Source: Escherichia coli O127:H6 str. E2348/69
GTDB taxonomy: Bacteria > Pseudomonadota > Gammaproteobacteria > Enterobacterales > Enterobacteriaceae
NCBI RefSeq assembly: GCF_000026545.1
Contig: NC_011601.1
Length of the DNA: 64,000 nt
Reading direction: 5' to 3' (one strand)
The position numbers and the translations under genes were made by a program. Shown one piece after another: positions 8,095-44,108 of this stretch (position 1 is the stretch's first letter; each line of letters begins with the position of its first letter). The notes beneath the pieces are model-generated. The model did not search any database, had not been told where the DNA came from, and saw nothing but the letters and a program-made list of their open reading frames with translations.

Positions 8095-8307
8095 TGCGAT
8101 TCTCCAGACAGGGCAAATTCCAGCACATATTACCCAAACTTATAGGTCGCGACGAGATGACGCGTTAACACTTCTGCAAAATTCAGGATAAATAACGTCC
8201 AGCCCCCTCACTTTTGGTGAATGGCTGAAGCCAACGTCATGTAGTGATATGATAGAAGTATTCGTGTCTGAGATTGTCTCTGACTCCATAATTCGAAGGT
8301 TACAGTT

Positions 8308-9240
8308 ATGATCATCGTTACCGGCGGCGCGGGCTTTATCGGCAGCAACATCGTTAAGGCCCTGAATGATAAAGGCATCACCGATATTCTGGTGGTGGAC
8401 AACCTGAAAGACGGCACCAAGTTTGTGAACCTGGTGGATCTGAATATCGCGGACTATATGGATAAGGAAGACTTCCTGATCCAGATTATGGCTGGCGAAG
8501 AGTTCGGCGATGTCGAAGCGATTTTCCACGAAGGCGCATGCTCTTCCACCACCGAGTGGGATGGCAAGTATATGATGGATAACAACTATCAATACTCCAA
8601 AGAGCTGCTGCACTACTGCCTGGAGCGCGAAATCCCGTTCCTGTATGCATCTTCCGCAGCCACTTACGGCGGACGCACCTCCGACTTTATTGAATCCCGT
8701 GAATACGAAAAACCGCTGAACGTCTACGGTTATTCGAAGTTCCTGTTTGATGAATATGTTCGCCAAATCCTGCCAGAAGCAAACTCACAGATTGTTGGCT
8801 TCCGCTATTTCAACGTTTATGGGCCGCGTGAAGGCCATAAAGGCAGCATGGCGAGCGTCGCTTTCCATCTCAACACCCAGCTTAATAACGGTGAATCACC
8901 GAAGCTGTTCGAAGGTAGCGAGAACTTTAAACGCGACTTCGTCTATGTGGGCGACGTGGCAGATGTAAACCTGTGGTTCCTGGAAAATGGCGTTTCCGGC
9001 ATCTTCAACCTCGGTACTGGTCGTGCGGAATCCTTCCAGGCTGTAGCAGATGCTACGCTTGCTTATCACAAGAAAGGCCAAATCGAATACATTCCGTTCC
9101 CGGATAAACTGAAAGGCCGCTACCAGGCATTCACGCAGGCAGATCTGACGAATCTGCGCGCGGCGGGTTACGATAAACCGTTCAAAACCGTTGCCGAAGG
9201 TGTAACGGAATACATGGCTTGGCTGAATCGTGACGCATAA
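8308..9240 (+). CDS. hldD: ADP-L-glycero-D-manno-heptose 6-epimerase
   Basis: 310-aa ORF; N-terminal Rossmann GGAGFIGS; recognised HldD/RfaD sequence. Confidence 0.95.
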
Positions 9241-9249: not shown

Positions 9250-10296
9250 ATGAAAATACTGGTGATCGGCCCGTCTTGGGTTGGCGACATGATGATGTCG
9301 CAAAGTCTCTATCGCACGCTCCAGGCGCGCTATCCCCAGGCGATAATCGACGTGATGGCACCGGCCTGGTGCCGTCCGTTATTATCGCGGATGCCGGAAG
9401 TTAACGAAGCCATCCCTATGCCCCTCGGTCACGGGGCGCTGGAAATCGGCGAACGCCGCAAGCTGGGTCATAGTCTGCGCGAAAAACGCTACGACCGTGC
9501 CTACGTCTTACCCAACTCCTTCAAATCCGCGTTAGTGCCTTTCTTCGCGGGGATCCCTCATCGCACCGGCTGGCGCGGTGAAATGCGCTACGGTTTACTC
9601 AACGATGTGCGCGTGCTCGATAAAGAAGCCTGGCCGCTAATGGTGGAACGCTATGTTGCGCTGGCCTATGACAAAGGCGTAATGCGTACCGCACAAGATC
9701 TACCAAAACCGCTGTTATGGCCGCAGTTGCAGGTGAGCGAAGGTGAAAAATCATATACCTGTAATCAATTTTCGCTTTCATCAGAACGTCCGATGATTGG
9801 TTTTTGCCCGGGGGCGGAGTTTGGTCCGGCAAAACGCTGGCCACACTACCACTATGCTGAGCTGGCAAAGCAGCTGATTGATGAAGGTTATCAGGTGGTT
9901 CTGTTTGGCTCGGCGAAAGATCATGAAGCGGGCAATGAGATTCTTGCCGCTTTGAATACCGAGCAGCAGGCATGGTGCCGGAACCTGGCGGGGGAAACAC
10001 AGCTTGATCAAGCAGTTATCCTGATTGCAGCCTGTAAAGCCATTGTCACTAACGATTCTGGCCTGATGCACGTTGCGGCGGCGCTCAATCGTCCGCTGGT
10101 TGCCCTGTATGGTCCGAGTAGCCCGGACTTCACACCGCCGCTATCCCATAAAGCGCGTGTGATCCGCCTGATTACCGGCTATCACAAAGTGCGTAAAGGT
10201 GACGCTGCGGAGGGTTATCACCAGAGCTTGATCGACATTACTCCCCAGCGCGTACTGGAAGAACTCAACGCGCTATTGTTACAAGAGGAAGCCTGA
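9250..10296 (+). CDS. waaF: LPS heptosyltransferase II
   Basis: 348-aa ORF; GT9 heptosyltransferase; recognised WaaF. Confidence 0.95.
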   Translation: MKILVIGPSWVGDMMMSQSLYRTLQARYPQAIIDVMAPAWCRPLLSRMPEVNEAIPMPLGHGALEIGERRKLGHSLREKRYDRAYVLPNSFKSALVPFFAGIPHRTGWRGEMRYGLLNDVRVLDKEAWPLMVERYVALAYDKGVMRTAQDLPKPLLWPQLQVSEGEKSYTCNQFSLSSERPMIGFCPGAEFGPAKRWPHYHYAELAKQLIDEGYQVVLFGSAKDHEAGNEILAALNTEQQAWCRNLAGETQLDQAVILIAACKAIVTNDSGLMHVAAALNRPLVALYGPSSPDFTPPLSHKARVIRLITGYHKVRKGDAAEGYHQSLIDITPQRVLEELNALLLQEEA

Positions 10297-10299
10297 CGG

Positions 10300-11259
10300 A
10301 TGCGGGTTTTGATCGTTAAAACATCGTCGATGGGCGATGTTCTCCATACGTTGCCCGCACTCACTGATGCCCAGCAGGCAATCCCGGGGATTAAGTTTGA
10401 CTGGGTGGTGGAAGAAGGGTTCGCACAGATTCCTTCCTGGCACGCCGCCGTTGAGCGAGTTATTCCTGTGGCAATACGTCGCTGGCGTAAAGCCTGGTTC
10501 TCGGCCCCCATAAAAGCTGAACGGAAAGCGTTTCGTGAAGCGCTACAAGCAGAGAACTATGACGCAATTATCGACGCTCAGGGGCTGGTAAAAAGCGCGG
10601 CGCTGGTGACGCGTCTGGCGCATGGCGTAAAGCATGGAATGGACTGGCAAACCGCTCGCGAACCTTTAGCCAGCCTGTTTTACAATCGTAAGCATCATAT
10701 TGCAAAACAGCAGCACGCCGTAGAACGCACCCGCGAACTGTTTGCCAAAAGTCTGGGCTATAGCAAACCGCAAACCCAGGGCGATTATGCTATCGCACAG
10801 CATTTCCTGACGAACCTGCCTACAGATGCTGGCGAATATGCCGTATTTCTTCATGCAACAACCCGAGATGATAAACACTGGCCGGAAGAACACTGGCGAG
10901 AATTGATTGGTTTACTGGCTGATTCAGGAATACGGATTAAACTTCCGTGGGGCGCGCCGCATGAGGAAGAACGGGCGAAACGACTGGCGGAAGGATTTGC
11001 TTATGTTGAAGTATTGCCGAAGATGAGTCTGGAAGGCGTTGCCCGCGTACTGGCCGGGGCTAAATTTGTAGTGTCGGTGGATACGGGGTTAAGCCATTTA
11101 ACGGCGGCACTGGATAGACCCAATATCACGGTTTATGGACCTACCGATCCGGGATTAATTGGTGGGTATGGGAAGAATCAGATGGTTTGTAGGGCTCCGG
11201 ATAAAGATCTTGCTCATCTGGCTGCAGAAACAGTATTTAAAAAAATCAATCCTGATTAA
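10300..11259 (+). CDS. waaC: LPS heptosyltransferase I
   Basis: 319-aa ORF; GT9; recognised WaaC. Confidence 0.95.
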   Translation: MRVLIVKTSSMGDVLHTLPALTDAQQAIPGIKFDWVVEEGFAQIPSWHAAVERVIPVAIRRWRKAWFSAPIKAERKAFREALQAENYDAIIDAQGLVKSAALVTRLAHGVKHGMDWQTAREPLASLFYNRKHHIAKQQHAVERTRELFAKSLGYSKPQTQGDYAIAQHFLTNLPTDAGEYAVFLHATTRDDKHWPEEHWRELIGLLADSGIRIKLPWGAPHEEERAKRLAEGFAYVEVLPKMSLEGVARVLAGAKFVVSVDTGLSHLTAALDRPNITVYGPTDPGLIGGYGKNQMVCRAPDKDLAHLAAETVFKKINPD

Positions 11260-11292
11260 CACGTTCTATATTATTAAGATGGTGGAGAAGCA

Positions 11293-12510
11293 ATGTTAAC
11301 AGCCTCGCTGGCGCTGCGTAATAAAGAGAATTGGAAACCATACTGGAATAGAGTGTTGGTATTCCTTTTTATTGCGACCTTTTTCCTTGATGGTATTACC
11401 CGTTATAAACATATCATATCTGTACTAATGATTATTACGGTAATTTATCAAGTTTTCCGTGCTCCAGGGACATTCAAAGAGCTCTACAAAAATAATCTTT
11501 TTTATAGTGTCTTGGCTCTGTCACTCATTCTTTTATATGCCACTTTCATATCACCAGATCTGAAAATAAGTTTTAAAGAATTCAGTAACACGGTGCTAAA
11601 AGGATTTTTGGCATATAGTTTACTTATACCCGTATTATTAAAAGATGAAGATAATGAAAGCATCGGTAAAGTTGTACTATACTCATTAGTTACCGGGCTT
11701 GGGTTACGTTGTCTTGTTGAAATTATTTCTTATATTCAGGATTATAATAAAGGAATAATGCCATTTTCGACCTATGAACATCGTAGTATTTCCGACTCAA
11801 TGGTGTTTCTATTTCCAGCATTATTAAACCTTTGGCTTATCAAGAAAACCTCTTATAAAATAATATTCATAATTTTTAGCGCAGTTTTCTTGTTTCTGCT
11901 ATTAGGAACGCTCTCTCGTGGTGCATGGCTGGCAGTATTCATAGTGACTCTACTATGGTTAATCTTAAATCGTCAGTGGAAATTATTGATGCTGACCTCT
12001 ATCGTTATTTCTGTTGCAGCAACTTGCGTATTTACCTTTAAAGGTGATCATACCGATGAAGATAGGCTTATTTATAAACTTCAACAGACCGACAGTTCTT
12101 ATCGCTATACCAATGGTACACAAGGTACAGCATGGACATTAATTATGGAGAACCCGCTTAAGGGATATGGCTATGGCGATGATATTTACCATGCAATATA
12201 CAATAAGCGTGTCGTAGATTTTCCATCATGGACTTTCAGACAATCCATTGGACCACACAACATTATTTTATCAATTTGGTTTGCAGCAGGTTTAGCTGGG
12301 CTACTCGCTTTACTTTATCTGTATGGCTCTATTATCAAAGAAACAGCTAACGCAACATTTAAAAAAGTGGTGGTCACTCCTTATAATGGTCAATTACTGC
12401 TATTTTTAACTCTTGTTGGTTTTTATATTATCCGAGGTAATTTCGAGGAAGTTGATCTCAAACCAATTGGCTTGATTGTTGGTTTGCTGTTAGCTATGCG
12501 GAATAAATAA
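11293..12510 (+). CDS. waaL: O-antigen ligase
   Basis: 405-aa polytopic membrane protein in an AT-rich segment; position after waaC. Confidence 0.85.
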   Translation: MLTASLALRNKENWKPYWNRVLVFLFIATFFLDGITRYKHIISVLMIITVIYQVFRAPGTFKELYKNNLFYSVLALSLILLYATFISPDLKISFKEFSNTVLKGFLAYSLLIPVLLKDEDNESIGKVVLYSLVTGLGLRCLVEIISYIQDYNKGIMPFSTYEHRSISDSMVFLFPALLNLWLIKKTSYKIIFIIFSAVFLFLLLGTLSRGAWLAVFIVTLLWLILNRQWKLLMLTSIVISVAATCVFTFKGDHTDEDRLIYKLQQTDSSYRYTNGTQGTAWTLIMENPLKGYGYGDDIYHAIYNKRVVDFPSWTFRQSIGPHNIILSIWFAAGLAGLLALLYLYGSIIKETANATFKKVVVTPYNGQLLLFLTLVGFYIIRGNFEEVDLKPIGLIVGLLLAMRNK

Positions 12511-12515
12511 AAAAA

Positions 12516-12544
12516 AGCCTGCCTGACATTGAGTTCAGGCAGGC
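12516..12544. terminator. Bidirectional intrinsic terminator between convergent waaL and waaU
   Basis: 11-bp perfect stem AGCCTGCCTGA / TCAGGCAGGCT with an A-run upstream. Confidence 0.6.
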
Positions 12545-12563
12545 TCTTCAAATCAAATAATTT

Positions 12564-13706
12564 TTAACCAAACCAGTCTTGCATTTGTGCCTCAAAACAC
12601 TGAGTTACATGTTCCCAGCTATATTTTGAAAAAACGAATTTCTGGGCATTTTCGGCAATTTGTGCTTTATTACTGTCTGCTAAGACCCGGTTGATATCAG
12701 AGAGAATGCTTTCAGACGTCATAGGTTCTGCAAGGTGATATCCTGTTATTCCTTCCAGAACAAACTCGTTTATCCCACCTTTTTGACTTGCAAGAACAGG
12801 TTTACCAGCCGCCATCGCTTCAACTGCTACCATGCAAAAAGCTTCTTCTACCTGGGAAGGAACAACAACTAAATCTGCTAAGCGGTAATATTTATGCATC
12901 TGCTCCGGTGGCTGCCCACCCGCCATAATACATTGCGCGCCAATAGCTTTCGCTTCATCCAGAACCTTATTCTGATATTCAGCTTTTTCACCTTTTTTAC
13001 TGGCAAAAGGATCACCAACAATAACCAATTTAAGATTGTCTCGATCCTTACACAGCTTATTGAAAGCATCCATAAGCATCAGACAGCCTTTATCTGGCGA
13101 TATCCTTCCTGCAAATAATAACACCGTATCATTCGCATCTATGTTAAATTTCTTCCTTAAATTTTCAGTATTATCATGTGAATACGATTCAGAGCAAAAA
13201 CCATTAGGCACAATAGCGATATCTGCATCAGGCATTTTTTCCGAATAGAAATCGAACAGAAACTGGCTAGGAACAATTATCTTTGCATTTTTGTCTAACT
13301 GCCCTGGTTCAAAAGCATTGTGAAGGTGCATGACTAGCTGCGCTTGAGGGCTTCTGCCACGAATCTGTTTATACAGCTTCATACTATTGTGGATAACAAT
13401 AACTGAGTCTTTCGGATCAGCATTTTTAGGTTGAGTATTTAAAATGCGCTGAGAATACGGCACAGGATCAAGTCGAGTCCACTTTTGGAAAAGTCGTTTA
13501 TAGACTCGACTAAAACCAATGTAGTGAATATCACAATTATCATTTACTTTTGTGTAGATAGGGTAGCCGTCGTTTCGAATACATGCGATAGTTGCTGGAA
13601 TCGAAAGTCTTTTGGCGACCTGATAAATCCATGTTTCAACCGCTGCAGCTCCTTTTGGCGGTATAGAAAATATTGGTGTGACGGTAAATATTATCTTTTT
13701 AATCAT
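12564..13706 (-). CDS. waaU: LPS core glycosyltransferase (GT4 family), WaaU/WaaK-like
   Basis: 380-aa ORF with GT4 C-terminal motif (EAFCMVAVEAMAAGKPVL); position in waa cluster; exact start uncertain. Confidence 0.72.
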   Translation of the reverse strand: MIKKIIFTVTPIFSIPPKGAAAVETWIYQVAKRLSIPATIACIRNDGYPIYTKVNDNCDIHYIGFSRVYKRLFQKWTRLDPVPYSQRILNTQPKNADPKDSVIVIHNSMKLYKQIRGRSPQAQLVMHLHNAFEPGQLDKNAKIIVPSQFLFDFYSEKMPDADIAIVPNGFCSESYSHDNTENLRKKFNIDANDTVLLFAGRISPDKGCLMLMDAFNKLCKDRDNLKLVIVGDPFASKKGEKAEYQNKVLDEAKAIGAQCIMAGGQPPEQMHKYYRLADLVVVPSQVEEAFCMVAVEAMAAGKPVLASQKGGINEFVLEGITGYHLAEPMTSESILSDINRVLADSNKAQIAENAQKFVFSKYSWEHVTQCFEAQMQDWFG

Positions 13707-13793
13707 TATTAGCCAACTCCAATATTTTGATAATACGAAATAAAGACATAGAAAATACTAGATTATTTTTTAGCAAACCCAAGATTATAAAAT

Positions 13794-14567
13794 TTATGAC
13801 AGTTCCATAAATGGAATGATATCATATTGAATTGCTGTATCATCCGACAAATTATAAATATTAATATCATCTACATTATCACGCATAAAACGGAAAAATG
13901 GCAAGATTTTGAATAAATCCTTACTCAATTCCGAGGGCATGGGATTATTATTTTCGTCATAGACACGAGAGCAGTTACCCGTTAAATCAAGACCAGAACA
14001 AATAATCCGTGCATACTTAAGTGAATATGCTATTTGAATTGCAGCGAAGGCAATAGTATGGCATGAGCAATAACCAAGACTAATGTCCTTGCAAAATCCA
14101 ACCAGACGACCTTTTTTAGACAACGGTACAGAGATCAGCAGTTCTTTGTGAATCTGGCTCAAAATATTAAATTTAATCTTCTTTATCAAACCGCCTTTTT
14201 CTCGGCGGTAAAAAGATCGTAATACGAGGCAGTTCTGGAGGATATAAAGTTTGTCTTCTTTGGAAGCGTGTTCATAAACGTCAACGTTTACTATGGTATA
14301 ACGACTTCTCTGGCTAAATTTATAAAAATCATCACGACGCTGATGTAAAAAGCGGACATCTGTAAGTACATATATAAAAGGAACGATATTATGACTTAAC
14401 AAATATTGCGCAGAACCATTGACAGCAATAATATCCTTTGTTCGTAATGCTGACAAAGGTGTTTTTTGCGATGTAGGGCCAGAAAGAAAAATAATAACAT
14501 CATCAGATGTTTTATTTTCAATCAGGTTTTCAACATCTTTTTTGTCAATGTATCTAATATTCTTCAT
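13794..14567 (-). CDS. waaZ: LPS core biosynthesis protein WaaZ
   Basis: 257-aa ORF in the AT-rich central waa block; position between waaU and waaY. Confidence 0.72.
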   Translation of the reverse strand: MKNIRYIDKKDVENLIENKTSDDVIIFLSGPTSQKTPLSALRTKDIIAVNGSAQYLLSHNIVPFIYVLTDVRFLHQRRDDFYKFSQRSRYTIVNVDVYEHASKEDKLYILQNCLVLRSFYRREKGGLIKKIKFNILSQIHKELLISVPLSKKGRLVGFCKDISLGYCSCHTIAFAAIQIAYSLKYARIICSGLDLTGNCSRVYDENNNPMPSELSKDLFKILPFFRFMRDNVDDINIYNLSDDTAIQYDIIPFMELS

Positions 14568-14640
14568 GATAAACCTGTGAAATAAATAACTCCGTTTAAA
14601 ACTGTCCTGGTGAAGACATGTAATTGTGGGTATTTCTATT

Positions 14641-15339
14641 TTAGCGCGCTGGTTTCCCTTTCAAACGCCGCATAAAATTGCGCATTTTTTTACGATATAC
14701 TAAAAGATAATAGCCTAGATCTTTAATCTCATTTTTAATACCGTAATGACGCTCTAAGTCAATACGATCTTTCGCTTTACGCTGCGCTGAAGCACGTTTT
14801 CCGGAGAGATCAATAATTCGAACCTCACCATTTTTTATAATGAAGTTACCACGATGGGGGTCGCCAGAAACCATGCCATGTTGATGTAAGGAATTAATTG
14901 ATTGCTGAATTTTATTTTTTAGCACATCATCAATATCAGGTATATCACACAACTCTATGCCATCAATATACTCGATGATCATGATATAAGTATGGACAAA
15001 TCGTAAGGTTTTCCGTTCAGCTAATAAATAAAAATCATTGAGTGTATTTAACCCTTCATTTCTTACTTTTTGGGTTTGCTCAAAAAGGCGTTCGTAATAA
15101 TCACCTTTTAACAGAGACTTAAAGAAACGCTCGTTACGCTTAACTTTCGGAGAAAAAACCTTAAGAATCAATTTACCGTAATCGGTATCAATAAGCATAA
15201 CTTTTGTATCATCAATAGAACGAAAAACCTTGATGATATTTATATTATAAGACAAGAAGTCATTTAATACATTGAGATAGTTTGAATTGTTTTCATCGGT
15301 AAAAACAACCAAGTCTTTGATCTTGCTCTTCTGAATCAT
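14641..15339 (-). CDS. waaY: LPS core heptose(II) kinase WaaY
   Basis: 232-aa ORF with kinase-like motifs (HGMVSGDPHRGNFI); position. Confidence 0.8.
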   Translation of the reverse strand: MIQKSKIKDLVVFTDENNSNYLNVLNDFLSYNINIIKVFRSIDDTKVMLIDTDYGKLILKVFSPKVKRNERFFKSLLKGDYYERLFEQTQKVRNEGLNTLNDFYLLAERKTLRFVHTYIMIIEYIDGIELCDIPDIDDVLKNKIQQSINSLHQHGMVSGDPHRGNFIIKNGEVRIIDLSGKRASAQRKAKDRIDLERHYGIKNEIKDLGYYLLVYRKKMRNFMRRLKGKPAR

Positions 15340-15356
15340 AATAAACCAGTTAAATG

Positions 15357-16373
15357 TTATTTAGGGTAATATTTTCGGCAAAGATAACAGACTCCTGCTA
15401 TAATTCCTGAGATATATTTATGCTGTACTAAAAGATGTTTATATCTTTTTTTAAATTCAATAATTGATTTTGCATCTCGTGGAGAGTCATCTTTCCATGG
15501 TGAATTTTCTAAAGCTATTTTATAGTATTTTACCGATGGATAAATTGCCCATTTGTGCCACGGTTTAGTTGCACCTGTATAGTGAATAAGCAGAGTACTT
15601 TCTGTAATCAGCTTTTTATAGTTTTGATGTGTTTTGTCTTTTAATTCACTTTTAATTGTATAAATTGTATTATATCCACGAGGCAAAAATATTGTCATCC
15701 CTTTCAGTAAGACATTCATAACATCCTGATCAGGGTATTTATACACATTATCTTTACTCATAAGAATAGACAACGCTTTTTCTGTTAGTTTTGCGTTAGC
15801 CCATTTTTTTAAATCTAAATAAACGACACCAGAATTAAAGTACTGCCCAAGTAATTCAGGATCAGACAACCTGGATGCCGCCTTTTCCTGCATTGGGTCA
15901 ACATCTTTAACAACAGCTGCAACCGCTCCGTTTAAATCCAGATGCAATAGTTGGCTAATATCGCCTTTACAAACAACATCTGCATCAAGATAAAGCAAAC
16001 GATCAAGTGTTAAACCCAATAATTGAAATGCAAATAAACGGAAGTACATTGCTCTTGACCAGACCTGTGTACAAGGCAAGCACTGGAGCTTATCAGTGTT
16101 AATTCTATATAATGTGATTCTTAATTGGTATTGCTCTGCAAGCTTTGCAACTTTTTGAAAAAAAGCATCATTATAAACATCAGCAATAATATAAAAATCA
16201 AGATTAATATGTCGATTATTTAGGACAATTGATGTAATGGAAACACCTACACCATCAAGATAATTAGCATCGACACCATAGGCAACATTTAAACATTCAG
16301 AAGTATTTATATTACCCAGCCGAAAATCCCAGGCTTTAACTTTATCTATCTCTATGGCAGAAAATGAGTCCAC
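15357..16373 (-). CDS. waaJ: GT8 LPS alpha-1,2-glucosyltransferase (WaaJ/WaaR)
   Basis: 338-aa GT8 family ORF (DxD-type YLDAD motif); position. Confidence 0.8.
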   Translation of the reverse strand: MDSFSAIEIDKVKAWDFRLGNINTSECLNVAYGVDANYLDGVGVSITSIVLNNRHINLDFYIIADVYNDAFFQKVAKLAEQYQLRITLYRINTDKLQCLPCTQVWSRAMYFRLFAFQLLGLTLDRLLYLDADVVCKGDISQLLHLDLNGAVAAVVKDVDPMQEKAASRLSDPELLGQYFNSGVVYLDLKKWANAKLTEKALSILMSKDNVYKYPDQDVMNVLLKGMTIFLPRGYNTIYTIKSELKDKTHQNYKKLITESTLLIHYTGATKPWHKWAIYPSVKYYKIALENSPWKDDSPRDAKSIIEFKKRYKHLLVQHKYISGIIAGVCYLCRKYYPK

Positions 16374-16412
16374 AATGCTACCCTTATATCATTACTTTAT
16401 TGTTTCTCAGTT

Positions 16413-17432
16413 TTAATGCTTTATCTTTTCAATAAAATAAAAAAGATAGTTGCTAAATCCTTTTAGATATCTATGTTTTTTAAGCATATGTTTTGCGCTA
16501 TATCTTAATTGATTGCTATTGTTCGGTTTCAGCAACGCCGTATTCTTCCATGGCGAAGCATTTTTTGCCTCCATAAAGGCTTGTGATACAGGATAATCCC
16601 AGGCCCAATCATGCCAGGGCTTGGTTGGCCCGATATAATGGATAAAAATAGTATTGTTGGTTACTGGGTTTATAAAGCTTTCTTTTAGTTGATAATTTAA
16701 GCTAAACTGGGTGTTATATTTAATATCAGCGAAAATAAGTTTATCTGCCAGCAACATATTTAATACATCCTGATCAGGATGTGTTATTTTTTTGATTATT
16801 CCTGGCTCATTTAGCATTGCAATGGCTCGTGCAGAAACCTGCTGAGCCGCCCATTTGGCAGTATTAATCAATAAAAAACCGGAGTTAAAGTAACCTTTAG
16901 CAATTCCCGCAACACCTAACGAATGGGCGCGTTTTTCCCACCAGTCAGCTTGTCCTTCTGTAACAACCATTGCGACTTTATCGTCAGGAAATGAGAATTT
17001 AATTAGTGGCTCAATAGTCCCCTGACAAATGATATCTGCATCCAGATAAAGGACTTTAGCCACCTTACTAATAAAGTAATCAGCAATAACAAAACGAAAA
17101 TATATTGCATGGGTCCAGTTCTTTGTGCTAGGCAATGAGCGCAGTCGATCACCATTAATCAGATATATTTTAATTCTGGTTTTATACTGTAATGCCAGGG
17201 CATCAAAATACTTACGATCATTATCACAAAAATAATCAGTAAAAATGTGGAAACACAACCGACTTCCTTCATTATACTTTAATATTGAAGCAATCGAAAT
17301 TCCGCAACCAAATAGAAAGTTTTTGTCAGTTCCATAAGCGATGTCCAGACAAAGATTTTCTGTTTCTACTTTATGATTATAATCAATAACTGAATTTAGA
17401 TACTCAGTTTCCTGGAAAAATACCTGCTGCAT
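16413..17432 (-). CDS. waaO: GT8 LPS alpha-1,3-glucosyltransferase (WaaO/WaaI)
   Basis: 339-aa GT8 family ORF, paralogous to the adjacent waaJ; position. Confidence 0.8.
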   Translation of the reverse strand: MQQVFFQETEYLNSVIDYNHKVETENLCLDIAYGTDKNFLFGCGISIASILKYNEGSRLCFHIFTDYFCDNDRKYFDALALQYKTRIKIYLINGDRLRSLPSTKNWTHAIYFRFVIADYFISKVAKVLYLDADIICQGTIEPLIKFSFPDDKVAMVVTEGQADWWEKRAHSLGVAGIAKGYFNSGFLLINTAKWAAQQVSARAIAMLNEPGIIKKITHPDQDVLNMLLADKLIFADIKYNTQFSLNYQLKESFINPVTNNTIFIHYIGPTKPWHDWAWDYPVSQAFMEAKNASPWKNTALLKPNNSNQLRYSAKHMLKKHRYLKGFSNYLFYFIEKIKH

Positions 17433-18511
17433 TATTTCCTCCGGGAAATAGCAGAAATAATTATATTATGTAATCTATCATAATACTTAGATTGATAAAA
17501 CTTATCGATCGACGCAGGAATTTTTTCATGTTCGATATGAATTTCACCTGCTATATATTTATTTAGAAGAGTAACAAAACCAGCAATATCTCCCGGTTGA
17601 TACAAATGGCCATTGACATCAGGTTGAATAATGTCACCAGGACCGGAGACACAATCGGCACTGATACACGGAATCCCCCATGACATTGATTCAAGTAAGG
17701 TCATTGGAAAACCTTCAAAAGATGAGGTTAATAACAATGCACTGACTTTCTTAATATCCTGACGCACTACCTCCCATGGATGTTTTTGCCAACCATGCCA
17801 GACAATTCGATTATCAATCTTCAATTCTCTACCATATGCCTGGCATTTTTCAAAATCAGAACCATCACCCAGTACATGGAGTTTCCAGTCACCTTGCGCT
17901 TGTGATAAACCATCAAGCAGGTCTTTAACCCTCTTCTGGCCCTCGAATTTCATACGCCCAACATAAATGAACGTTGCCGTTTCACCTTCCTCAGGCCCAG
18001 GAATGACTGTGTCTTTAGCTTCGACTGGATTAAAAATAACATTTATCGTCGATTCTGGTACACCCCGATTAATCATTTGCTGTTTAATGCCAGAGCTGAT
18101 GGCTAAATGATAGTCTGCACAGGTGATATATTCAGCATGTTTTTTGTGATCTAAAGAAAAATGCGGCCATGAAAATACTGGCACATCAATTCCTGATTTT
18201 TTACGTGCTTTGGCCGCATACAAACACGAGATAACGTCAATACAAATAACAACATCTGGCTGATAATCTTGAAGCCATTTGCTTAAAGCATGAATATGTT
18301 TCGCCCGACGCAAAAAACCTAAGCGAATATTGGAAAATGAACACGAGTACTTAATACCTTCCAGCCATCCCTTATCCATTTTATCATTACGACAAAAGAA
18401 AAACATTTCACTATAGATATGTTGTTGCCTGAAGGTAGTAATAACATCACGAATGACCGTTTCCATGCCGCCAAATCCAGAAACAGCTTCGCCGATAAAT
18501 GCTATTTTCAT
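17432..18511 (-). CDS. waaB: LPS alpha-1,6-galactosyltransferase WaaB
   Basis: ORF 17432..18541 trimmed to MKIAFIGEA (359 aa); GT4 family. Confidence 0.85.
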   Translation of the reverse strand: MKIAFIGEAVSGFGGMETVIRDVITTFRQQHIYSEMFFFCRNDKMDKGWLEGIKYSCSFSNIRLGFLRRAKHIHALSKWLQDYQPDVVICIDVISCLYAAKARKKSGIDVPVFSWPHFSLDHKKHAEYITCADYHLAISSGIKQQMINRGVPESTINVIFNPVEAKDTVIPGPEEGETATFIYVGRMKFEGQKRVKDLLDGLSQAQGDWKLHVLGDGSDFEKCQAYGRELKIDNRIVWHGWQKHPWEVVRQDIKKVSALLLTSSFEGFPMTLLESMSWGIPCISADCVSGPGDIIQPDVNGHLYQPGDIAGFVTLLNKYIAGEIHIEHEKIPASIDKFYQSKYYDRLHNIIISAISRRK

Positions 18512-18554
18512 TGAAACTCTCATTAATTGAGTAAAACTCACTGTTTTAACGGTT

Positions 18555-19490
18555 TTATTTTTCTATAAAATCATAAACAATTGTTGACATCATTTTATCA
18601 GGGCTGAATTTATATAAACTATCATAATCCATTGGTTTAACAGATGAATTAATAAAATACTCTAACTTATCCCAATCATCATGACCTATTATAAAAAAGC
18701 GAGACTCACTATAGATTTCCGAACCAAGTACATTTATATTATTAGTAATTAATTTTTTATTGAAAAATAGTGCCTCAAGTATACGAAGAGTCCAGCCAGA
18801 TTGGTTTTCTTTAGTTATATCAACAATTATATTAGCATTTAATGTTCTTCTAATATTCTCTTCATACGGTATTTGTTTTTCAATCAAATACTTTGAAGTC
18901 GGAGATGATGTTTTATCTTTGACAACATTAAAATCTAACTTACATCCTAGTGTTGTTAATCTATCGGCTAATTCATTAATTATTTGAAGACGTCCTTTAT
19001 CACGACCAAGAAAAAAACATATTGGCTGACTGTTATTTTTGTCAGATAAACTATAATTTCTAATTTCATCCATTCCTATAGGAAAAAATTGTTCTATTGC
19101 CTTGATCTTTTCATTCCCTATAAATCTATGCTCAAAATCATAGATAATATCAAAATAATTAGTGTTATCAAAAATAAAATTTTCACTGACAGTATTTCTT
19201 AGAAGTAATACTTTATGACAATTAATATTTTTTAATATTTGCTTGTTAATATTTTTATTAATGACACTGTCATTAAATATAATGATATCATCCTTTTTTA
19301 CAGCATTTAGGTGATGTTTGATAAATAATCGTCCCAACCATGCATTATCCATCCCTAATTTCGAAATTTTCTTATTAACCCAGTTGTATTTTTTTGGTGT
19401 TGTTATATTTTTTATCTTGTGCTTTTTTTTCAAGTACTGGATCATTTTTAATTCATAATCTGCAACCCAGTTTATAAAATAAATAGTCAT
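18555..19490 (-). CDS. waaS: LPS core biosynthesis protein WaaS
   Basis: 311-aa AT-rich ORF between waaB and waaP; K-12-type core marker gene. Confidence 0.72.
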
Positions 19491-19526
19491 AATGAAGTTA
19501 GTTCCAGTACATACTGATTAATATTT

Positions 19527-20324
19527 TTATAATCCTTTGCGTTGTGTTCGCTCTTTAATATGCTCGGCCTTAACACTTGCCATGTTCAATAAATTCCGTT
19601 CAAAAGATAATATCTCACGTAAAGGCATCCCAAAATAAACCTTCATAAATCGCCAGATATCTCTCTGCGTCAGCCCAATATTCATTGATGAAAAATACAA
19701 ACCAATCAAATCTTTATCCCGCCAACGACGCGGTACTTTTGCACGTATCTGCGCCCGGTGCAGGTCAATTACTGAAATTTTTAACTCCTCTTCCTTACCG
19801 GAAAAAGGCAAATGCAGCAGGAAATGACAGATATAACAGTCACGGTGGTTAATGCCCGCAGCATGCATATCGCGCACCATCGTCGCTACACGCTTAATAA
19901 GCATACGCTTTACGCGAACATCTGGTGGGTTGGTTGCCCAGTCAGCACAGTAATCCTCCAGACTAATGGTTGGTGTCAGATCTTCGGTAATAATAAACGA
20001 GGTTCTGGTCAGCGGATTAATACCTTTTTCGCCAAATGCCACCCCATACATAGTATCAACGCCGACATCCCGCAGTCGATGAATCGCATTCCATTCGCGG
20101 TCTGCGCCTAATACTGGCATCCGCAATGAGAGTAAATTTTTGATTATCTCTTTCAGGGTCGTGCCGCGATGCCATTTGAGAAAATAGCTTTTGCCCGCCA
20201 TTTCAAAGCGCAGAGTACGGCGAGTTTCCAGTTCACGAAATACCTCACCCTGCAAAGTTTTAACTTCCTCAAAAGGATCTTTTCCGCGCCATAACGTGGC
20301 AAACGGCTCTTTAAGTTCAACCAT
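19527..20324 (-). CDS. waaP: LPS core heptose(I) kinase WaaP
   Basis: ORF 19527..20333 trimmed to MVELKEPF (265 aa); kinase motifs ([15 protein letters not shown]); recognised WaaP. Confidence 0.9.
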
Positions 20325-21441
20325 CCAGACCACCCGTTATGATATCCGCCGCTTTTTCTGGCAGACTGTATAAATCTTGTGTATCAGCATAATGTCGCGC
20401 ATTTTCCGCCCAGGCCTGGCGCAATGAAAATTGCGTTAACGCTTTGCGTAAAATCTCATTCAATGTTTCCTGGCGGAATGGCTCAGCAATAGCCTCGCCG
20501 CAATTGGCGTCGACAATATAATGCGCATAGCCACAAACGGCTGTTGTTAGTACCGGTAATCCTGCAGTAATCGCTTCCAGCAGCACAATTCCCGCCGCTT
20601 CCTGGTAGGCAGGATGCAGTAATAAATCCGCCGCCGCCATTAATTCCGAGACATCGTTGCGCCCCGAGAAGAAGTGAACATTACTGCGCACGCCGCGTTT
20701 TTCTGCCAGCGCCTCAAATTTTCGCGGTTTATCCTGCCCAACAACATATAGTAATGTGTTGTGGCGCAGCGAATCCGGTAACGAAGCAAGTGCTTCAATG
20801 GAACGATCGACACCTTTACGCGTGAAGTCTGAACCGACCTGCAACAATAAATATTGTTGTTCGGTTATTCCATTCTTCTTACGGAAGATTTCACGGCTAT
20901 TCGCTGGTTGCTGGCTATATTTACGATCAGGATAAATCCCCGGAGGCAGAATATGAAAACGCTCCGCTTCAGTCTGATAATGTTTCTGGAAATCGGCGAT
21001 TTGCTTATCTGTCAGCATCAGCAGCTGTGCCGGCTTGCCCTGTTCGAAGGTTGCCCGCTCAAAGGCGGCATAATGGCGATAACGTGACGTCAGGCGATAG
21101 AAAAAGCCTTTCTCCTGCGCTACTTTCTCGGCATAACAAACATCAGCGGCATAATAAACGTCCAGCCCCGGCATTTTATTAAATCCAACGACTCTATCGA
21201 CGGGGTGTTCACGTAAATGTTTTTGCACCCAGGCAAAATATTCCGCATTGCGCCCGTGATTGGTATGCGATTTAACCGGCACTTTGATCAGTTCAAATAC
21301 ATCAGGGCATTCGCCTTCCCACGACTGGGTATAAACCCGAACATGATGACCTCGGGCGGCGACTGTCTGAGCAATACGCATAAAATCGCGCTGCAAACCG
21401 CCAAAGGGAAAATATTTATATAAACAAAAAGCAACGATCAT
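20317..21441 (-). CDS. waaG: LPS glucosyltransferase I WaaG
   Basis: 374-aa GT4 ORF; recognised WaaG. Confidence 0.95.
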
Positions 21442-22496
21442 AACGACGTACCTGTCGTGGAAGAGGGAAGTAATTTATCGACAGCTGCAATGACATCTGC
21501 CGCCGGAATAACCGAAAGATACATCTCATTTCGGTCACGCTGATCGCGCGTTGGCATTTCCCGGTAATCTCCCGCCCAGAATTGAATCATGTTATTTGAC
21601 CAGGGACGCCAGAAAATATGGTCCGTCGCACCAAACAGCGATATCAGCGGCGTATTAACTGCAGCGGCAATATGCGCCGGTGCGGAATCAACGCCAATAA
21701 ACAGCTGCGCATGATCGATTAACGCACCAAGTTCCGGGAAGGTCACCTTTCCGGCCAGCGCCGTTACTGGTGGCGTCTGGCATCCCTGCGCAATTTCATT
21801 GACGCAGGCCAGATCGTCTTTATCTGGGCCGGACGTCAGAACGACTTCATAACCACGAGCATGTAAGGCATCAATCACAGCGGAAAACTTGGCGTTGTCC
21901 CAGCATTTGAAGATTTGCCGCGCCGTAGGTTGGATAACCACATAATTTTGTCCAACACCAGCGTGATCAAGTTCGCGACGCATACGTTTCCAGCTTGCAG
22001 GCGGGTAACTCATGGTTGTCTGCTTCACCAACGATTCAAGTCCCAATGGCGTCAGCACGGATAAGTTACTTTCCACCACATTTCCACCCTGCAACGGCAC
22101 CAAATGAGTGAAACTATTACGCCAAAAAGCAGACTGCCGATGATGATAATCCTGGGAAATTTTCACACGGGCATTTAATAAGCGAACCAGTATAGCAACC
22201 ATCCATTGATCGGTAAGATTAACGATAAGGTCATACTTATTGGCACGTAATACCTTGATGAGATGAAAAAAGTTGGCAATTTTTTCTGAGGCTTTTGCTT
22301 TTTTATTTTTTATGCCGTAGAGCGCGTTAATCTCTGGATTTTCAGACAGGATCGGGATGGTGTCCTGATAAAGCAGCACATCGATTTTTGCGTCAGGGTA
22401 ATTTTTTTTCAGCGAACTAATGACGGGAGTAGTTAATAACATATCCCCATGAAAACGCATCTTAATGAGCAAAATTCTTCGAAATGGCTTATCCAC
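21438..22496 (-). CDS. waaQ: LPS heptosyltransferase III WaaQ
   Basis: 352-aa GT9 ORF; first gene of the waaQ operon. Confidence 0.9.
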   Translation of the reverse strand: MDKPFRRILLIKMRFHGDMLLTTPVISSLKKNYPDAKIDVLLYQDTIPILSENPEINALYGIKNKKAKASEKIANFFHLIKVLRANKYDLIVNLTDQWMVAILVRLLNARVKISQDYHHRQSAFWRNSFTHLVPLQGGNVVESNLSVLTPLGLESLVKQTTMSYPPASWKRMRRELDHAGVGQNYVVIQPTARQIFKCWDNAKFSAVIDALHARGYEVVLTSGPDKDDLACVNEIAQGCQTPPVTALAGKVTFPELGALIDHAQLFIGVDSAPAHIAAAVNTPLISLFGATDHIFWRPWSNNMIQFWAGDYREMPTRDQRDRNEMYLSVIPAADVIAAVDKLLPSSTTGTSL

Positions 22497-22545: not shown

Positions 22546-22557
22546 CACGCTACCGCC
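22546..22557 (-). promoter_or_regulatory. ops element (RfaH recruitment site) in the waaQ leader
   Basis: Plus strand reads CACGCTACCGCC, so the non-template strand of the waaQ transcript reads GGCGGTAGCGTG, ~50 nt upstream of the waaQ start. Confidence 0.8.
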
Positions 22558-22909
22558 CCAGGCTCAACAGCTACCTGAATACTGATACCGCACTGATATT
22601 GACGCGCTAGTGTATCACTTCTTTCGCGGCAATCCGACCCGAATGATTTTTAAGCACATTGTTGATTTTCAATAAAGAAATCAATCAAATAAAATCATTA
22701 GCAACCATATTCTTTTTACTGTTGCTCTGCGATTCCTTCCTGCACGTACTGCAGAAATCAATGAATCGCATAAAAATACAAAAAAAGTATAGATGTTCAG
22801 CAAGAATTGGCGGGTAAATTGCTATTTAAGTCAAAAACGGGAAAAGTAATGGTAAAGCCACAGCTAAATACATAGAATCCCCAGCACATCCATAAGTCAG
22901 CTATTTACT

Positions 22910-24674
<1,765 letters not shown>

Positions 24675-28863: not shown

Positions 28864-29460
28864 ATGGCAGAAAAACAAACTGCGAAAAGGAACCGTCGCG
28901 AGGAAATACTTCAGTCTCTGGCGCTGATGCTGGAATCCAGCGATGGAAGCCAACGTATCACGACGGCAAAACTGGCCGCCTCTGTCGGCGTTTCCGAAGC
29001 GGCACTGTATCGCCACTTCCCCAGTAAGACCCGCATGTTCGATAGCCTGATTGAGTTTATCGAAGATAGCCTGATTACTCGCATCAATCTGATTCTGAAA
29101 GATGAGAAGGACACCACAGCGCGCCTGCGTCTGATCGTGTTGTTGCTCCTCGGTTTTGGTGAGCGTAATCCTGGCCTGACTCGCATCCTCACTGGTCATG
29201 CGCTAATGTTCGAACAGGATCGTCTGCAAGGGCGCATCAACCAGCTGTTCGAGCGTATTGAAGCGCAGTTGCGTCAGGTATTGCGTGAAAAGAGAATGCG
29301 TGAGGGTGAAGGTTACACCACCGATGAAACCCTGCTGGCAAGCCAGTTGCTGGCATTTTGTGAAGGTATGCTGTCACGATTTGTCCGCAGCGAGTTTAAA
29401 TACCGCCCGACGGATGATTTTGACGCCCGCTGGCCGCTAATTGCCGCACAGTTGCAGTAA
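28864..29460 (+). CDS. slmA: Nucleoid occlusion factor SlmA (TetR family)
   Basis: ORF 28822..29460 trimmed to ATG 28864 ([16 protein letters not shown]...), 198 aa. Confidence 0.93.
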
Positions 29461-29503: not shown

Positions 29504-30463
29504 TTACCATACCACCAGCATTCGCTTTACACCCTCCCTCGCCTGTTTAAAACCCTCATCCTCAGGATTGATTTGCAATAACCAGTTTATTCTTCCCTGC
29601 AAAGCATAAAGATACGCCGTTGCCTGTGCATGAAGATCGCCAGAAGAATCAAGCTCACCACGACGACTAAGATGCGAAATGACGCCATATTTTTGGCACA
29701 AATGTACTTCCTGACGCAGTGCCCTCCGCACTTCGCGGGCGAGTTGTGGTTTGTGATTAACAACAATCCCGGTTACTTGCTGGCGCTTACAGGCCGCGAC
29801 CAGGCAGCTTTTGCGTTGATTGAGGTTCAGGCCCAGCTCCGCTAACAATCCGCACACTTTATTTTTAACCAGGCGGGCATTGAAGTGACCGGAAAAGGTC
29901 ATGTCATCGCAGTAGCGGGTGTAGGTAATTCCCCGAGCCTGACACCATTCCCCTATGCGCTCATCAAAACGGCACATCACAAGATTGGAAATGGCAGGCG
30001 AAGTTGGTGCCCCCTGCGGTAACGCGTCGTTATAGCAACAAAGCCAGGTCAGCATGCTTACCACATTGCGTGGCAACTGGGCCTGGCGAAACACACGCCA
30101 GACCTGTAACCAGCTAATGCTATCGAAAAAGTTTTCGATATCGAGTTTCAGGATCTGCGGCTGTTGGCAGTGAGGCTGCGCATTGCTGACGATTGGGCAA
30201 CCCGGCCGGTAGGCGGTAGCAAAAGGGGAAAGAGGGAATTGTGAAAGGACGTTCTTAAGAATGTTGCGCTGTACGGTTTTGAGCAAGTAATTAGGGGCTA
30301 ACACCACCCGCTGACCGCCGTGACGCTTAGAAAGAATAATCCGTCGGTAATGGCGTGCGGCATGATTACTGAGCGCATACAGCCGCTGTATTTCTTTATC
30401 GGCGCTCCAGCCCGGCGAGCCGAACAAATCAAGCGCCAGAAGGGTTATCCGGGTAGCATCCAT
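29504..30463 (-). CDS. Retron-type reverse transcriptase
   Basis: 319 aa from ATG (ORF track gives 323 aa from an upstream GTG); RT motifs YCDDMTFSG (YxDD) and QGAPTSPAISNL; retron-typical VTG motif (QVTGIVVN); between slmA and pyrE, where K-12 has only a short intergenic palindrome. Confidence 0.85.
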   Translation of the reverse strand: MDATRITLLALDLFGSPGWSADKEIQRLYALSNHAARHYRRIILSKRHGGQRVVLAPNYLLKTVQRNILKNVLSQFPLSPFATAYRPGCPIVSNAQPHCQQPQILKLDIENFFDSISWLQVWRVFRQAQLPRNVVSMLTWLCCYNDALPQGAPTSPAISNLVMCRFDERIGEWCQARGITYTRYCDDMTFSGHFNARLVKNKVCGLLAELGLNLNQRKSCLVAACKRQQVTGIVVNHKPQLAREVRRALRQEVHLCQKYGVISHLSRRGELDSSGDLHAQATAYLYALQGRINWLLQINPEDEGFKQAREGVKRMLVVW

Positions 30464-30759: not shown

Positions 30760-31401
30760 TTAAACGCCGAACTCTTCGCGATAGGCCTTAACCGCCGCCA
30801 GATGTTCCGCCATTTCCGGCTTCTCTTCAAGGTAAGCAATCAGGTCTTTCAGGGTGATGATAGAGATCACTTTGCAGTTGTAATCACGCTCAACTTCCTG
30901 AATCGCCGAAATCTCGCCGCGCCCGCGCTCCTGACGATCGAGCGAAATCAATACGCCAGCAAGCGTCGCGCCATTGGCCTGAATAATTTCCATCGACTCG
31001 CGAATCGCCGTTCCGGCGGTGATCACATCATCCACCAGCATTACGCGTCCTTGTAATGCGCTACCGACCAGATTGCCGCCTTCACCGTGATCTTTTGCTT
31101 CTTTGCGGTTAAAGCAGTACGGCAGGTCCAGGTCATGATGCTCCGCCAGCGCTACAGCGGTAGTAGTGGCAATTGGGATCCCTTTGTAAGCAGGGCCAAA
31201 CAGCAGATCGAACTCAATGCCGGAATCCACTAACGCTTCAGCGTAAAAACGGCCTAACAGTGCCAGATCGCGCCCGGTATTAAACAGCCCGGCGTTGAAG
31301 AAATAGGGGCTTTTGCGCCCGGACTTCAGCGTAAACTCGCCAAACTTTAACACCTGCTTGCTAAGCGCAAATTCAATAAACTGGCGCTGATATGGTTTCA
31401 T
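30760..31401 (-). CDS. pyrE: Orotate phosphoribosyltransferase
   Basis: ORF 30760..31416 trimmed to [11 protein letters not shown] (213 aa); PRPP-binding motif [13 protein letters not shown]. Confidence 0.95.
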
Positions 31402-31466: not shown

Positions 31467-32183
31467 TCAGTTTGCCAGCGCCGCCTTCTGCGTCGCTACA
31501 ATGGATTCGATTCCCCCTCGGGCCAGCGCCAACAAGGTGAGTAGCTCTTCATGGGTAAACGGCTCGCCTTCTGCCGTTCCCTGAACTTCAATGATGCGCC
31601 CGTCTTCGGTCATCACCACGTTCATGTCCGTTTCAGCGGCAGAGTCTTCAACGTATTCCAGATCGCAAACCGCTTCGCCGTTCACAATACCAACAGAAAC
31701 CGCGGCTACCATCCCTTTCATCGGGTTGGTTTTCAGCTTGCCATTTTCAACCAGTTTATTCAGGGCATCGGCCAGTGCAACACAAGCACCGGTAATCGAA
31801 GCGGTACGCGTGCCACCATCAGCCTGAAGCACGTCGCAGTCCAGCGTAATGGTGAACTCACCCAGCGCTTTCAAATCTACTGCCGCGCGAAGAGCACGGG
31901 CGATCAGACGCTGGATTTCCATTGTGCGTCCCCCCTGCTTACCTTTCGCCGCTTCACGGGCATTACGGGTATGAGTAGAACGCGGCAGCATACCGTATTC
32001 TGCGGTGATCCAGCCCTGGCCCTGACCTTTCAGGAAGCGCGGCACGCCTTCTTCAATAGAGGCGGTACACAACACTTTGGTATCGCCAAATTCGACCAGC
32101 ACCGAGCCTTCTGCATGTTTTGTATAGTTACGAGTCAGGGTAACGGGACGCACCTGATTATTGCTACGGCCTGCTGGACGCAT
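31467..32183 (-). CDS. rph: Ribonuclease PH (full length)
   Basis: ORF 31467..32207 trimmed to [15 protein letters not shown] (238 aa); C-terminus intact. Confidence 0.95.
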
Positions 32184-34620: not shown

Positions 34621-34636
34621 AAGTTTTGTTTGAAGG

Positions 34637-34739
34637 TATTCACCCTATTCACCTTTTTAATTAACTTCATGATTTTAAATAATAAAAAAGGGTGAATACT
34701 TACAGTAAAACTAATCACCTTAGTATTCACCTGTTCACC
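34637..34739. repeat. Cluster of five TATTCACC/TGTTCACC 8-mers (putative recombinase arm-type or regulator sites)
   Basis: TATTCACC at 34637, 34646 and 34724; TGTTCACC at 34732; inverted copy GGTGAATA at 34691; directly downstream of int. Confidence 0.5.
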
Positions 34740-34817
34740 TTCTAAAGCTGCTGTGGCTGCTCCCCTTGCCCGAAAACACGCCAGCCACCAGCGTTAAAAA
34801 AAACTACAAAAATCATC

Positions 34818-34839
34818 ATCGTACAGATCTGTACGATGA
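34818..34839. promoter_or_regulatory. Perfect 22-bp palindrome, putative operator
   Basis: CATCGTACAGATCTGTACGATG in the non-coding region between int and the cargo operon. Confidence 0.4.
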
Positions 34840-35123
34840 CGCCAGCACTCACCCTACAAAACAACCTAACTTATTGATTTCAAAAGTAGAGAAAATCTGC
34901 TTTATGCCACTAGCTCGCACCCGTCCCCAAAAAGAAAAAGCCCGCGCTGGAGACGCACGGGCTTTTGGGTACCGATAACCATGTTTGGAATCAACTCATT
35001 GAGTTCTGACCTCAATTTGCATGTTATCACAAGAAAAACACATTGTAATAATTGCAACAACGAATATCATCATTGCATATAATGAAACATAAATATCCGA
35101 TAGAACATACTGAGGTCTGACCG

Positions 35124-35675: not shown

Positions 35676-35688
35676 AGAGATATGAAGC

Positions 35689-35877
35689 ATGTCTATCTAT
35701 GACCCGAAATTAGCCGCAGGCAACCCACAGCGCGCCCACCGCCCAATGCTGACCCGTCAGGATCTTGAAACGGCAAAGGCACGCAATAACTTCGATCGCC
35801 AGAGTCGCAACCTGCAGCAACTCAACGAATCAAATGCACGGTTCTGGAGTGAACAGAATGAGAAAGCCAAACGTTAA
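35689..35877 (+). CDS. Hypothetical small protein (operon gene 2)
   Basis: 62-aa ORF 14 bp after gene 1. Confidence 0.45.
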   Translation: MSIYDPKLAAGNPQRAHRPMLTRQDLETAKARNNFDRQSRNLQQLNESNARFWSEQNEKAKR

Positions 35878-36765: not shown

Positions 36766-36776
36766 AGACAGTAAAG

Positions 36777-36803: not shown

Positions 36804-36812
36804 TGTGAACAT

Positions 36813-44090: not shown

Positions 44091-44108
44091 CTTGTAAAAA
44101 ATCACCAA

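Follow-up and report, generated by a model that had tools for sequence, protein, structure and literature searches.

The lipopolysaccharide core locus of Escherichia coli O127:H6 E2348/69 as a K-12/R2 hybrid

The chromosomal waa locus, which is the lipopolysaccharide (LPS) core locus of Escherichia coli, was analyzed in a 64,000-nucleotide stretch of the genome of E. coli O127:H6 strain E2348/69 (hereafter the window). The initial annotation of this stretch assigned the locus to a K-12-type core, and that label does not hold. The type-defining waaU gene and the K-12-class waaL gene are replaced by waaK and waaL genes of the R2 class, and we are highly confident that the region represents the configuration published as a 'K-12/R2 hybrid'. 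The feature is real but already known: the hybrid has been published for this exact genome (PMC13293308). What is new here is only the correction of the label; AT-rich outer-core blocks are found in every core type compared, and the polymorphism of htrL is common.

All coordinates are positions in the window, and the finding under test covers 11260-19500 (8,241 bp). Gene annotation was taken from RefSeq record NZ_CP059840.2 (E2348/69); all 64,000 bp of the window match the reverse complement of its positions 85054-149053 with 0 mismatches. Genes were called from open reading frames (ORFs), from NCBIfam scans, and from the annotation of this identical record. E2348/69 is the prototype enteropathogenic O127:H6 strain, a stool isolate from Taunton, UK. 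The comparison loci were those of K-12 (MG1655/ER3413), NCTC86 (R2), and AR_0104 (phylogroup B2, K-12-type core). Population counts refer to 5,426 complete RefSeq E. coli genomes, and typing oligonucleotides from Trofimova et al. 2025 (PMC13293308) were applied in silico.

Evidence for the hybrid configuration comes from the two convergent genes waaK and waaL. The gene at 12564-13706 had been read as waaU-like, but it encodes a GT4 protein, WaaK, that is unrelated to the GT9 protein WaaU. It scores 720.3 bits against NF012028 (lipopolysaccharide N-acetylglucosaminyltransferase), for which the cut-off is 618, and its product shares 91% amino acid identity with the R2 WaaK of NCTC86. Comparison with K-12 WaaU was not significant by BLASTP (E = 0.031 over 39 amino acids) and gave no match by blastn, and no waaU homologue is present among the ORFs located at 11-23 kb in the window. 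Likewise, WaaL scores 661.6 bits against NF012031 (O-antigen ligase RfaL) and is 94% identical in amino acids to the R2 WaaL of NCTC86, and its comparison with K-12 WaaL (419 amino acids) was not significant by BLASTP (E = 0.12) and empty by blastn. The controls behaved as would be needed for these assignments, with K-12 WaaL and WaaU matching neither NF012031 nor NF012028 and the NCTC86 proteins matching both. A K-12-type locus is recognized by waaU (encoding the GT9 heptosyltransferase IV) as the last gene of the central operon and by a K-12-class WaaL, neither of which is found. Instead, as in the R2 type, the central operon closes with waaK, and WaaL is of the R2/Salmonella class.

The features of the region are given below in order of position, with identities at the nucleotide level.

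8095-8307, no strand: intergenic region between kbl and hldD, without htrL/yibB (ORFs, alignment to K-12)
8308-9240, plus strand: hldD (rfaD), ADP-glyceromanno-heptose 6-epimerase, first gene of the hldD-waaF-waaC-waaL operon (RefSeq annotation; 95.7% to K-12)
9250-10296, plus strand: waaF, heptosyltransferase II (RefSeq annotation, per-gene comparison)
10300-11259, plus strand: waaC, heptosyltransferase I, whose last ~60 nucleotides (from ~11200) belong to the R2-like cassette (RefSeq annotation, breakpoint alignments)
11200-13835, no strand: R2-like replacement cassette of 2.6 kb, comprising the waaC 3′ end, waaL, the putative terminator hairpin, waaK, and the last ~13 codons of waaZ (BLAST breakpoints, junction alignments)
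11293-12510, plus strand: waaL, R2/Salmonella-class O-antigen ligase, 405 amino acids (NF012031, 661.6 bits, cut-off 277)
12512-12549, no strand: hairpin with a 15-bp stem and a T run, between the convergent waaL and waaK genes (consensus scan only)
12564-13706, minus strand: waaK, predicted GT4 UDP-GlcNAc:LPS alpha-1,2-N-acetylglucosaminyltransferase, 380 amino acids (NF012028, 720.3 bits, cut-off 618)
13794-14567, minus strand: waaZ, KdoIII transferase, 257 amino acids (NF007333, 538 bits; TIGR04437; 94.7% to K-12)
14641-15339, minus strand: waaY, HepII kinase (NF007684, 396.5 bits; 97.9% to K-12)
15357-16373, minus strand: waaR (rfaJ in RefSeq), predicted alpha-1,2-glucosyltransferase, GT8 (profile and RefSeq; 96.7% to K-12)
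16413-17432, minus strand: waaO, predicted alpha-1,3 hexosyltransferase, GT8 (profile and RefSeq; 97.2% to K-12); 'galactosyltransferase' is the NCBIfam model's own name
17432-18511, minus strand: waaB, predicted alpha-1,6-galactosyltransferase (NF007396, 606.6 bits; 91.6% to K-12, 99.9% to AR_0104)
18555-19490, minus strand: waaS, the K-12-side marker gene, with the lowest GC in the block (0.26) (NF053598, 183.9 bits; 93.3% to K-12, no NCTC86 match)
19527-20324, minus strand: waaP, HepI kinase (profile and RefSeq; 81.8% to K-12, 98.5% to AR_0104)
20317-21441, minus strand: waaG, glucosyltransferase I (RefSeq annotation, per-gene comparison; 80.1% to K-12)
21438-22496, minus strand: waaQ, heptosyltransferase III, first gene of the central operon (70.7% to K-12, 99.8% to AR_0104)
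22546-22584, minus strand: JUMPstart element in the leader of waaQ, with its ops site GGCGGTAGCGTG at 22546-22557 (Rfam RF01707 at 55.2 bits and E = 6.4e-10, for a gathering score of 35)
22910-24187, plus strand: waaA, Kdo transferase, in the GC-normal right flank (RefSeq annotation, nucleotide identity, GC)

The replacement has sharp edges. Homology to both K-12 and AR_0104 ends at ~11198-11200, in the last 60 nucleotides of waaC, and restarts at ~13801-13835, in the last ~13 codons of waaZ. Between these breakpoints, the window aligns with the R2-type locus only, at ~91% identity to the mainstream R2 cassette, and waaL and waaK are 91.7% and 89.9% identical to those of NCTC86 with no match in K-12 or AR_0104. 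Because one breakpoint falls in the waaZ 3′ end, waaZ is K-12-like apart from an R2-like 3′ end, and WaaZ is shorter (257 amino acids versus 283 in K-12, a difference of 26, and 269 in NCTC86). This shortened WaaZ is probably functional, since it still covers profile positions 1-251 of 252 in TIGR04437.

The remainder of the central operon is K-12-like to varying degrees. The initial annotation had described K-12-type gene content with waaS and waaZ present, and both genes are indeed there. Moreover, waaS lies between waaP and waaB, as in the K-12 core type, and it and waaZ, waaB, waaO, waaR, and waaY do resemble their K-12 counterparts. However, the last five (91.6-97.9% identical to K-12) do not discriminate between types, as R2 has them too, and waaU is absent. 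Against NCTC86, waaZ, waaY, waaR, waaO, and waaB are 85.7-89.7% identical and waaS has no match, whereas all six are 95.9-99.9% identical to AR_0104. For waaP, waaG, and waaQ, identity to NCTC86 is 80.3, 78.4, and 70.7%, and identity to AR_0104 is 98.4-99.8%; from waaO to waaQ overall, the window and AR_0104 are 98.4-99.9% identical. In 400-bp sliding windows, divergence from AR_0104 is at most 2% from ~15600 rightwards, 3-5% in waaZ-waaY, and 2-7% in kbl-waaF. Because divergence is raised in these latter two intervals, the data suggest that the replacement tract in E2348/69 may have extended past the non-homologous 2.6 kb, reaching roughly from kbl to waaY/waaR.

Taken by origin, waaQ to waaO are nearly identical to the genes of phylogroup-B2 strains with a K-12-type core, waaS, waaB, waaO, waaR, waaY, and waaZ constitute the K-12-like gene set, and in the distal 2.6 kb an R2-class WaaK and its matching R2/Salmonella-class WaaL stand in for WaaU (the HepIV transferase) and the K-12-class ligase. 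A further layer of mosaicism is seen in waaQGP, for which E. coli carries two deeply diverged haplotypes that are ~77% identical (70.7% in waaQ), with flanks that are 98-99% identical (98.7% for the neighboring waaA). The haplotype of the window (19527-22496) is the majority one, present at ≥95% identity in 4,469 of the 5,426 genomes, and the K-12 laboratory group numbers 955. The breakpoints, the non-homologous cassette, and the two waaQGP haplotypes fit an exchange by recombination or horizontal transfer, and they are stronger evidence for it than AT-richness.

In silico core typing agrees with the gene assignments. The K-12 forward primer, which lies in waaU, has no site in the window (the best candidate has 7 mismatches). 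The R2 primers do find sites, although inexactly (R2-F at 13613 with 1 mismatch and R2-R at 14201 with 3 mismatches), and they predict an R2-like waaK-waaZ product of ~609 bp, compared with the published 610 bp. K-12 and NCTC86 each match their own primers with 0 mismatches. A match of the outer-core genes to one of the R1 to R4 types, which the initial annotation had named as the outcome that would speak against it, is thus found in part, in that waaL and waaK are R2-class.

The hybrid was first reported in 2025 by Trofimova, Westerman & Jaschke (Microb Genom; PMC13293308). In that study, a 'K-12/R2 hybrid' has the K-12 gene set with waaK (~90% nucleotide identity to R2) in place of waaU, an R2-like waaL, and a waaS that is ~93% identical to that of K-12. 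The corresponding values here are 89.9% for waaK and 91.7% for waaL relative to R2, and 93.3% for waaS relative to K-12. E2348/69 is typed there as K-12/R2, phylogroup B2, ST15 (Table S1); its assemblies GCA_014117345.2 and GCA_000026545.1 are listed, Table S15 includes the genome, and Table S21 gives no K-12 counterpart for its waaL or waaK (PMC13293308). The hybrids carry O127, O19, and O58, and ST131 is classed as K-12 type (PMC13293308). One sentence in the Results (section 'R2/K-12 hybrids') gives the waaL of the hybrid as 100% identical to that of K-12, but this is contradicted by Table S21 and the Discussion of the same paper and by the BLASTP comparison above (E = 0.12).

The initial annotation had also described an AT-rich central waa block and had attributed it to a horizontal origin of the outer-core genes. 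The first part of this statement is amply confirmed. GC content is 0.347 in 11260-19500, compared with 0.512 in the rest of the window, 0.524 in hldD-waaC, and 0.535 in waaA-coaD. All 16 of the 500-bp tiles inside the block have a GC of 0.42 or less, and those outside have a mean of 0.513 (standard deviation 0.045), a difference far beyond chance (Mann-Whitney p = 1.8e-10). The window's GC minimum at a length of 8,241 bp is the stretch beginning at 11401. By gene, GC ranges from 0.26 (waaS) up to 0.40 (waaK) within the block, with GC at third codon positions (GC3) of 0.21-0.33, and is intermediate in waaP, waaG, and waaQ (0.45-0.48).

As to the second part, the locus is visibly mosaic in a manner that fits recombination or horizontal transfer, whereas AT-richness alone is only suggestive. 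Low GC (~35%) spans the outer-core block in every core type compared, both K-12-type and R2-type, and because it covers genes common to these loci, the AT-rich block may be old. There is a substantial, if somewhat less than even, chance that the AT-richness reflects selection or regulation acting on an ancient resident locus, such as low-expression codon usage or silencing by nucleoid proteins that is relieved by RfaH, rather than recent acquisition. Consistent with this possibility, low GC is not confined to the swapped cassette but extends over genes that all compared E. coli core variants share, the operon has a JUMPstart/ops leader, and every genome examined has the block at one and the same chromosomal site. 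The breakpoints, the non-homologous cassette, and the two waaQGP haplotypes (~77% identical within flanks that are 98-99% identical) argue in the other direction by revealing repeated allele exchange. However, ancient residence with regulation and allele exchange are mutually compatible, and low GC is in keeping with a polysaccharide locus of long standing that recombines and is predicted to need RfaH antitermination for its expression.

Several considerations weigh against the hybrid interpretation and the functional expectations attached to it. The canonical R2 GT8 gene ('wabA') is absent at the waaS position, so the R2 gene set is incomplete too, and the cassette is ~9% diverged from mainstream R2. 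That WaaK and WaaL have the same substrate specificity as their mainstream R2 counterparts is an assumption. Modifications by WaaS or WabA could set the hybrid apart from both parent types (PMC13293308). A literature search found no structural data for the E2348/69 core, and the glycan discussed below is what we infer from gene content. Finally, AT-richness alone can neither date nor prove horizontal transfer.

Given the R2-class genes, one might ask whether the locus is no more than a canonical R2 core locus, with 'hybrid' an artefact of naming. The R2-defining waaK and waaL are present above curated cut-offs, the terminal sugar that is predicted and the class of the ligase resemble those of R2, and R2 was itself originally described as a K-12/Salmonella hybrid, to judge from the title of reference 59 in PMC13293308. 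A literature search on the prototype R2 strain F632 together with waaS found nothing. Nevertheless, we consider this explanation improbable and reject it on the basis of waaS versus the GT8 gene and of backbone divergence. The ~490 RefSeq genomes with a mainstream R2 locus (e.g., NCTC86) have the GT8 gene and not waaS. Mainstream R2 genomes are also only 78-90% identical to the window across waaZ-waaG and 70.7% identical in waaQ, whereas from waaZ to waaS the window and K-12 are 92-98% identical. Furthermore, the published R2 primers match inexactly, and the full arrangement occurs in 5 of the 5,426 genomes only.

In the NCTC86 locus, the GT8 glycosyltransferase gene (called 'wabA' in PMC13293308) lies at 15889-16868, at the position held by waaS in K-12 and in the window, and is frameshifted.

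The label given by the initial annotation, under which a wild strain would carry a true K-12-type core locus (waaQGPSBORYZU with the waaL of K-12), fares worse still and is very improbable. In its favor, waaS, waaZ, waaY, waaR, waaO, and waaB are 91.6-97.9% identical to those of K-12, and the K-12 type does occur on this backbone in ~1,000 genomes, AR_0104 and other B2 strains among them. However, a pure K-12 type is rejected on waaU and waaL by nucleotide comparison, BLASTP, NCBIfam controls, and primers: waaU is absent with GT4 waaK in its place, waaL is unrelated to that of K-12, the K12-F primer has no site, and the published typing is K-12/R2 (PMC13293308). An assembly artefact can be dismissed as next to impossible, as nothing was found in its favor, the 8,241 bp are identical in three independent O127:H6 assemblies, and an unrelated genome, L1PEag1, is 99.6% identical.

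The K-12/R2 hybrid arrangement is rare. The K-12-type backbone occurs in ~1,000 of the 5,426 genomes (69% of the query matched, at 95-99% identity), and the R2-class waaL-waaK cassette occurs in 500, of which 496 carry it at ~91% identity and only 4 carry the allele of the window (≥99%). These four are strain L1PEag1 and the three O127:H6 assemblies, and CUPF09 (91.2%) joins them as the fifth genome with the full waaL-to-waaS arrangement. Perhaps the 2.6-kb waaL-waaK cassette represents a third, ~9% diverged allele class that may have come from a donor lineage or species not yet sampled. Together with WaaS, it could yield a core glycoform unlike those of K-12 and R2, and this glycoform could have phage-receptor, serum, and ligase-specificity properties of its own. 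We regard this reading as unlikely.

L1PEag1 (NZ_CP145513.1) is the sole genome other than O127:H6 with the cassette allele of the window (99.6-99.7%), and its operon contains an inserted ISAs1-family transposase gene. This genome is probably an example of the previously described variants with 'yhhI between waaZ and waaY' (PMC13293308).

The layout of the locus allows some predictions regarding expression and function, which draw on established knowledge of the waa pathway and on the descriptions of WaaK, WaaU, and WaaL in PMC13293308. A JUMPstart element with its ops site (GGCGGTAGnnTG) sits 50 nucleotides upstream of the waaQ start, in the 5′ leader (RF01707). The central operon, waaQ-G-P-S-B-O-R-Y-Z-K on the minus strand, would be transcribed from this JUMPstart/ops leader, presumably with the assistance of RfaH over its long AT-rich course. 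The hldD-waaF-waaC-waaL operon converges on it, and both are predicted to end at the shared hairpin (12512-12549), which is likely the terminator for both operons.

The encoded enzymes could then act as follows. WaaG, WaaO, and WaaR would build a three-glucose backbone, to which WaaB would add a galactose branch. WaaP, WaaY, and WaaQ would modify the heptose region, and WaaZ and WaaS would make inner-core variants. WaaK would add a terminal alpha-1,2 GlcNAc that the R2-class WaaL is expected to need for ligation of the O127 antigen. The predicted outer core, Glc-Glc-Glc(+Gal) capped with GlcNAc, would be an R2-like acceptor for WaaL.

The absence of htrL (yibB), with only ~213 bp between kbl and hldD, was another claim of the initial annotation, and it is correct. 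Between the end of kbl (8094) and the start of hldD (8308) lies a gap of 213 bp with no htrL/yibB, and alignment with the K-12 interval reveals 61 bp (8199-8259) at the place of a 1,283-bp K-12 segment (GC 0.36) holding yibB/htrL. However, the contiguous kbl-hldD junction is found in 3,465 of the 5,426 genomes (64%), and the K-12 yibB segment in 1,950. Both NCTC86 and AR_0104 have the contiguous junction, and htrL-positive genomes include K-12 and O157:H7. Because 64% of complete E. coli genomes lack htrL at this junction, its absence is weak evidence; it is the commoner state of the kbl-hldD spacer and says little beyond 'not K-12-like at this spot'. We therefore reject it as a distinctive marker. 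A literature search for htrL polymorphism returned nothing useful.

The proposal that the DNA comes from a natural isolate rather than a K-12 laboratory strain is likewise borne out, given the 100% identity to E2348/69 along with an intact rph gene, a retron-type reverse transcriptase gene, and a frz-like cluster. The rph gene (31467-32183, minus strand, 717 bp, 238 amino acids) has no frameshift, consistent with a non-K-12 background. The reverse transcriptase family gene (29504-30463, minus strand, 319 amino acids), which is the retron of the initial annotation, lies between pyrE (30760-31401) and slmA (28864-29460); a window scan found no msr/msd RNA family at the Rfam gathering threshold. 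The frz-like cluster (59037-64000) comprises phosphotransferase system (PTS) fructose-type IIA/IIB/IIC components, two aldolases, a ROK-family protein, and a sugar isomerase. Elsewhere in the window, an island of ~11.3 kb between yicC and dinD (33361-44636) encodes, besides many small hypothetical proteins, a tyrosine integrase, a protein of the DNA primase family, and an Icd-like cell-division inhibitor. With an Rfam int-alpA small RNA at 39117-39184 (plus strand) inside it, this island looks like a P4-like satellite element.

The core type has a bearing on the range of O-antigens open to ligation, on the phages and colicins that bind, and on the behavior of typing schemes. E2348/69 is the reference enteropathogenic E. 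coli (EPEC) strain, its core is neither K-12 nor canonical R2, and exact-match typing tools miss it.

Among known systems, the locus is closest to the hybrid of PMC13293308, which was described from the same genome, with agreeing figures and nothing substantive that differs. With the K-12 locus (MG1655/ER3413), it shares the waaQ-G-P-S-B-O-R-Y-Z order and orthologues and the flanks hldD-waaF-waaC and waaA-coaD, but it differs in the replacement of waaU and waaL, in the other waaQGP haplotype (70-82% identical), in a WaaZ that is 26 amino acids shorter, and in the lack of htrL/yibB. Canonical R2 loci (NCTC86, ECOR11) have waaK and an R2-class waaL at the same positions and in the same convergent layout, but they carry the GT8 gene ('wabA') where the window has waaS, their backbone is 10-17% diverged, and their cassette is ~9% diverged. 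Finally, B2 loci of the K-12 type (AR_0104) share the stretch from waaO to coaD at 98.4-99.9% identity, the waaQGP haplotype, and the kbl-hldD junction without htrL, whereas they carry waaU and the K-12 waaL and diverge by 3-5% in waaZ-waaY and by 2-7% in kbl-waaF.

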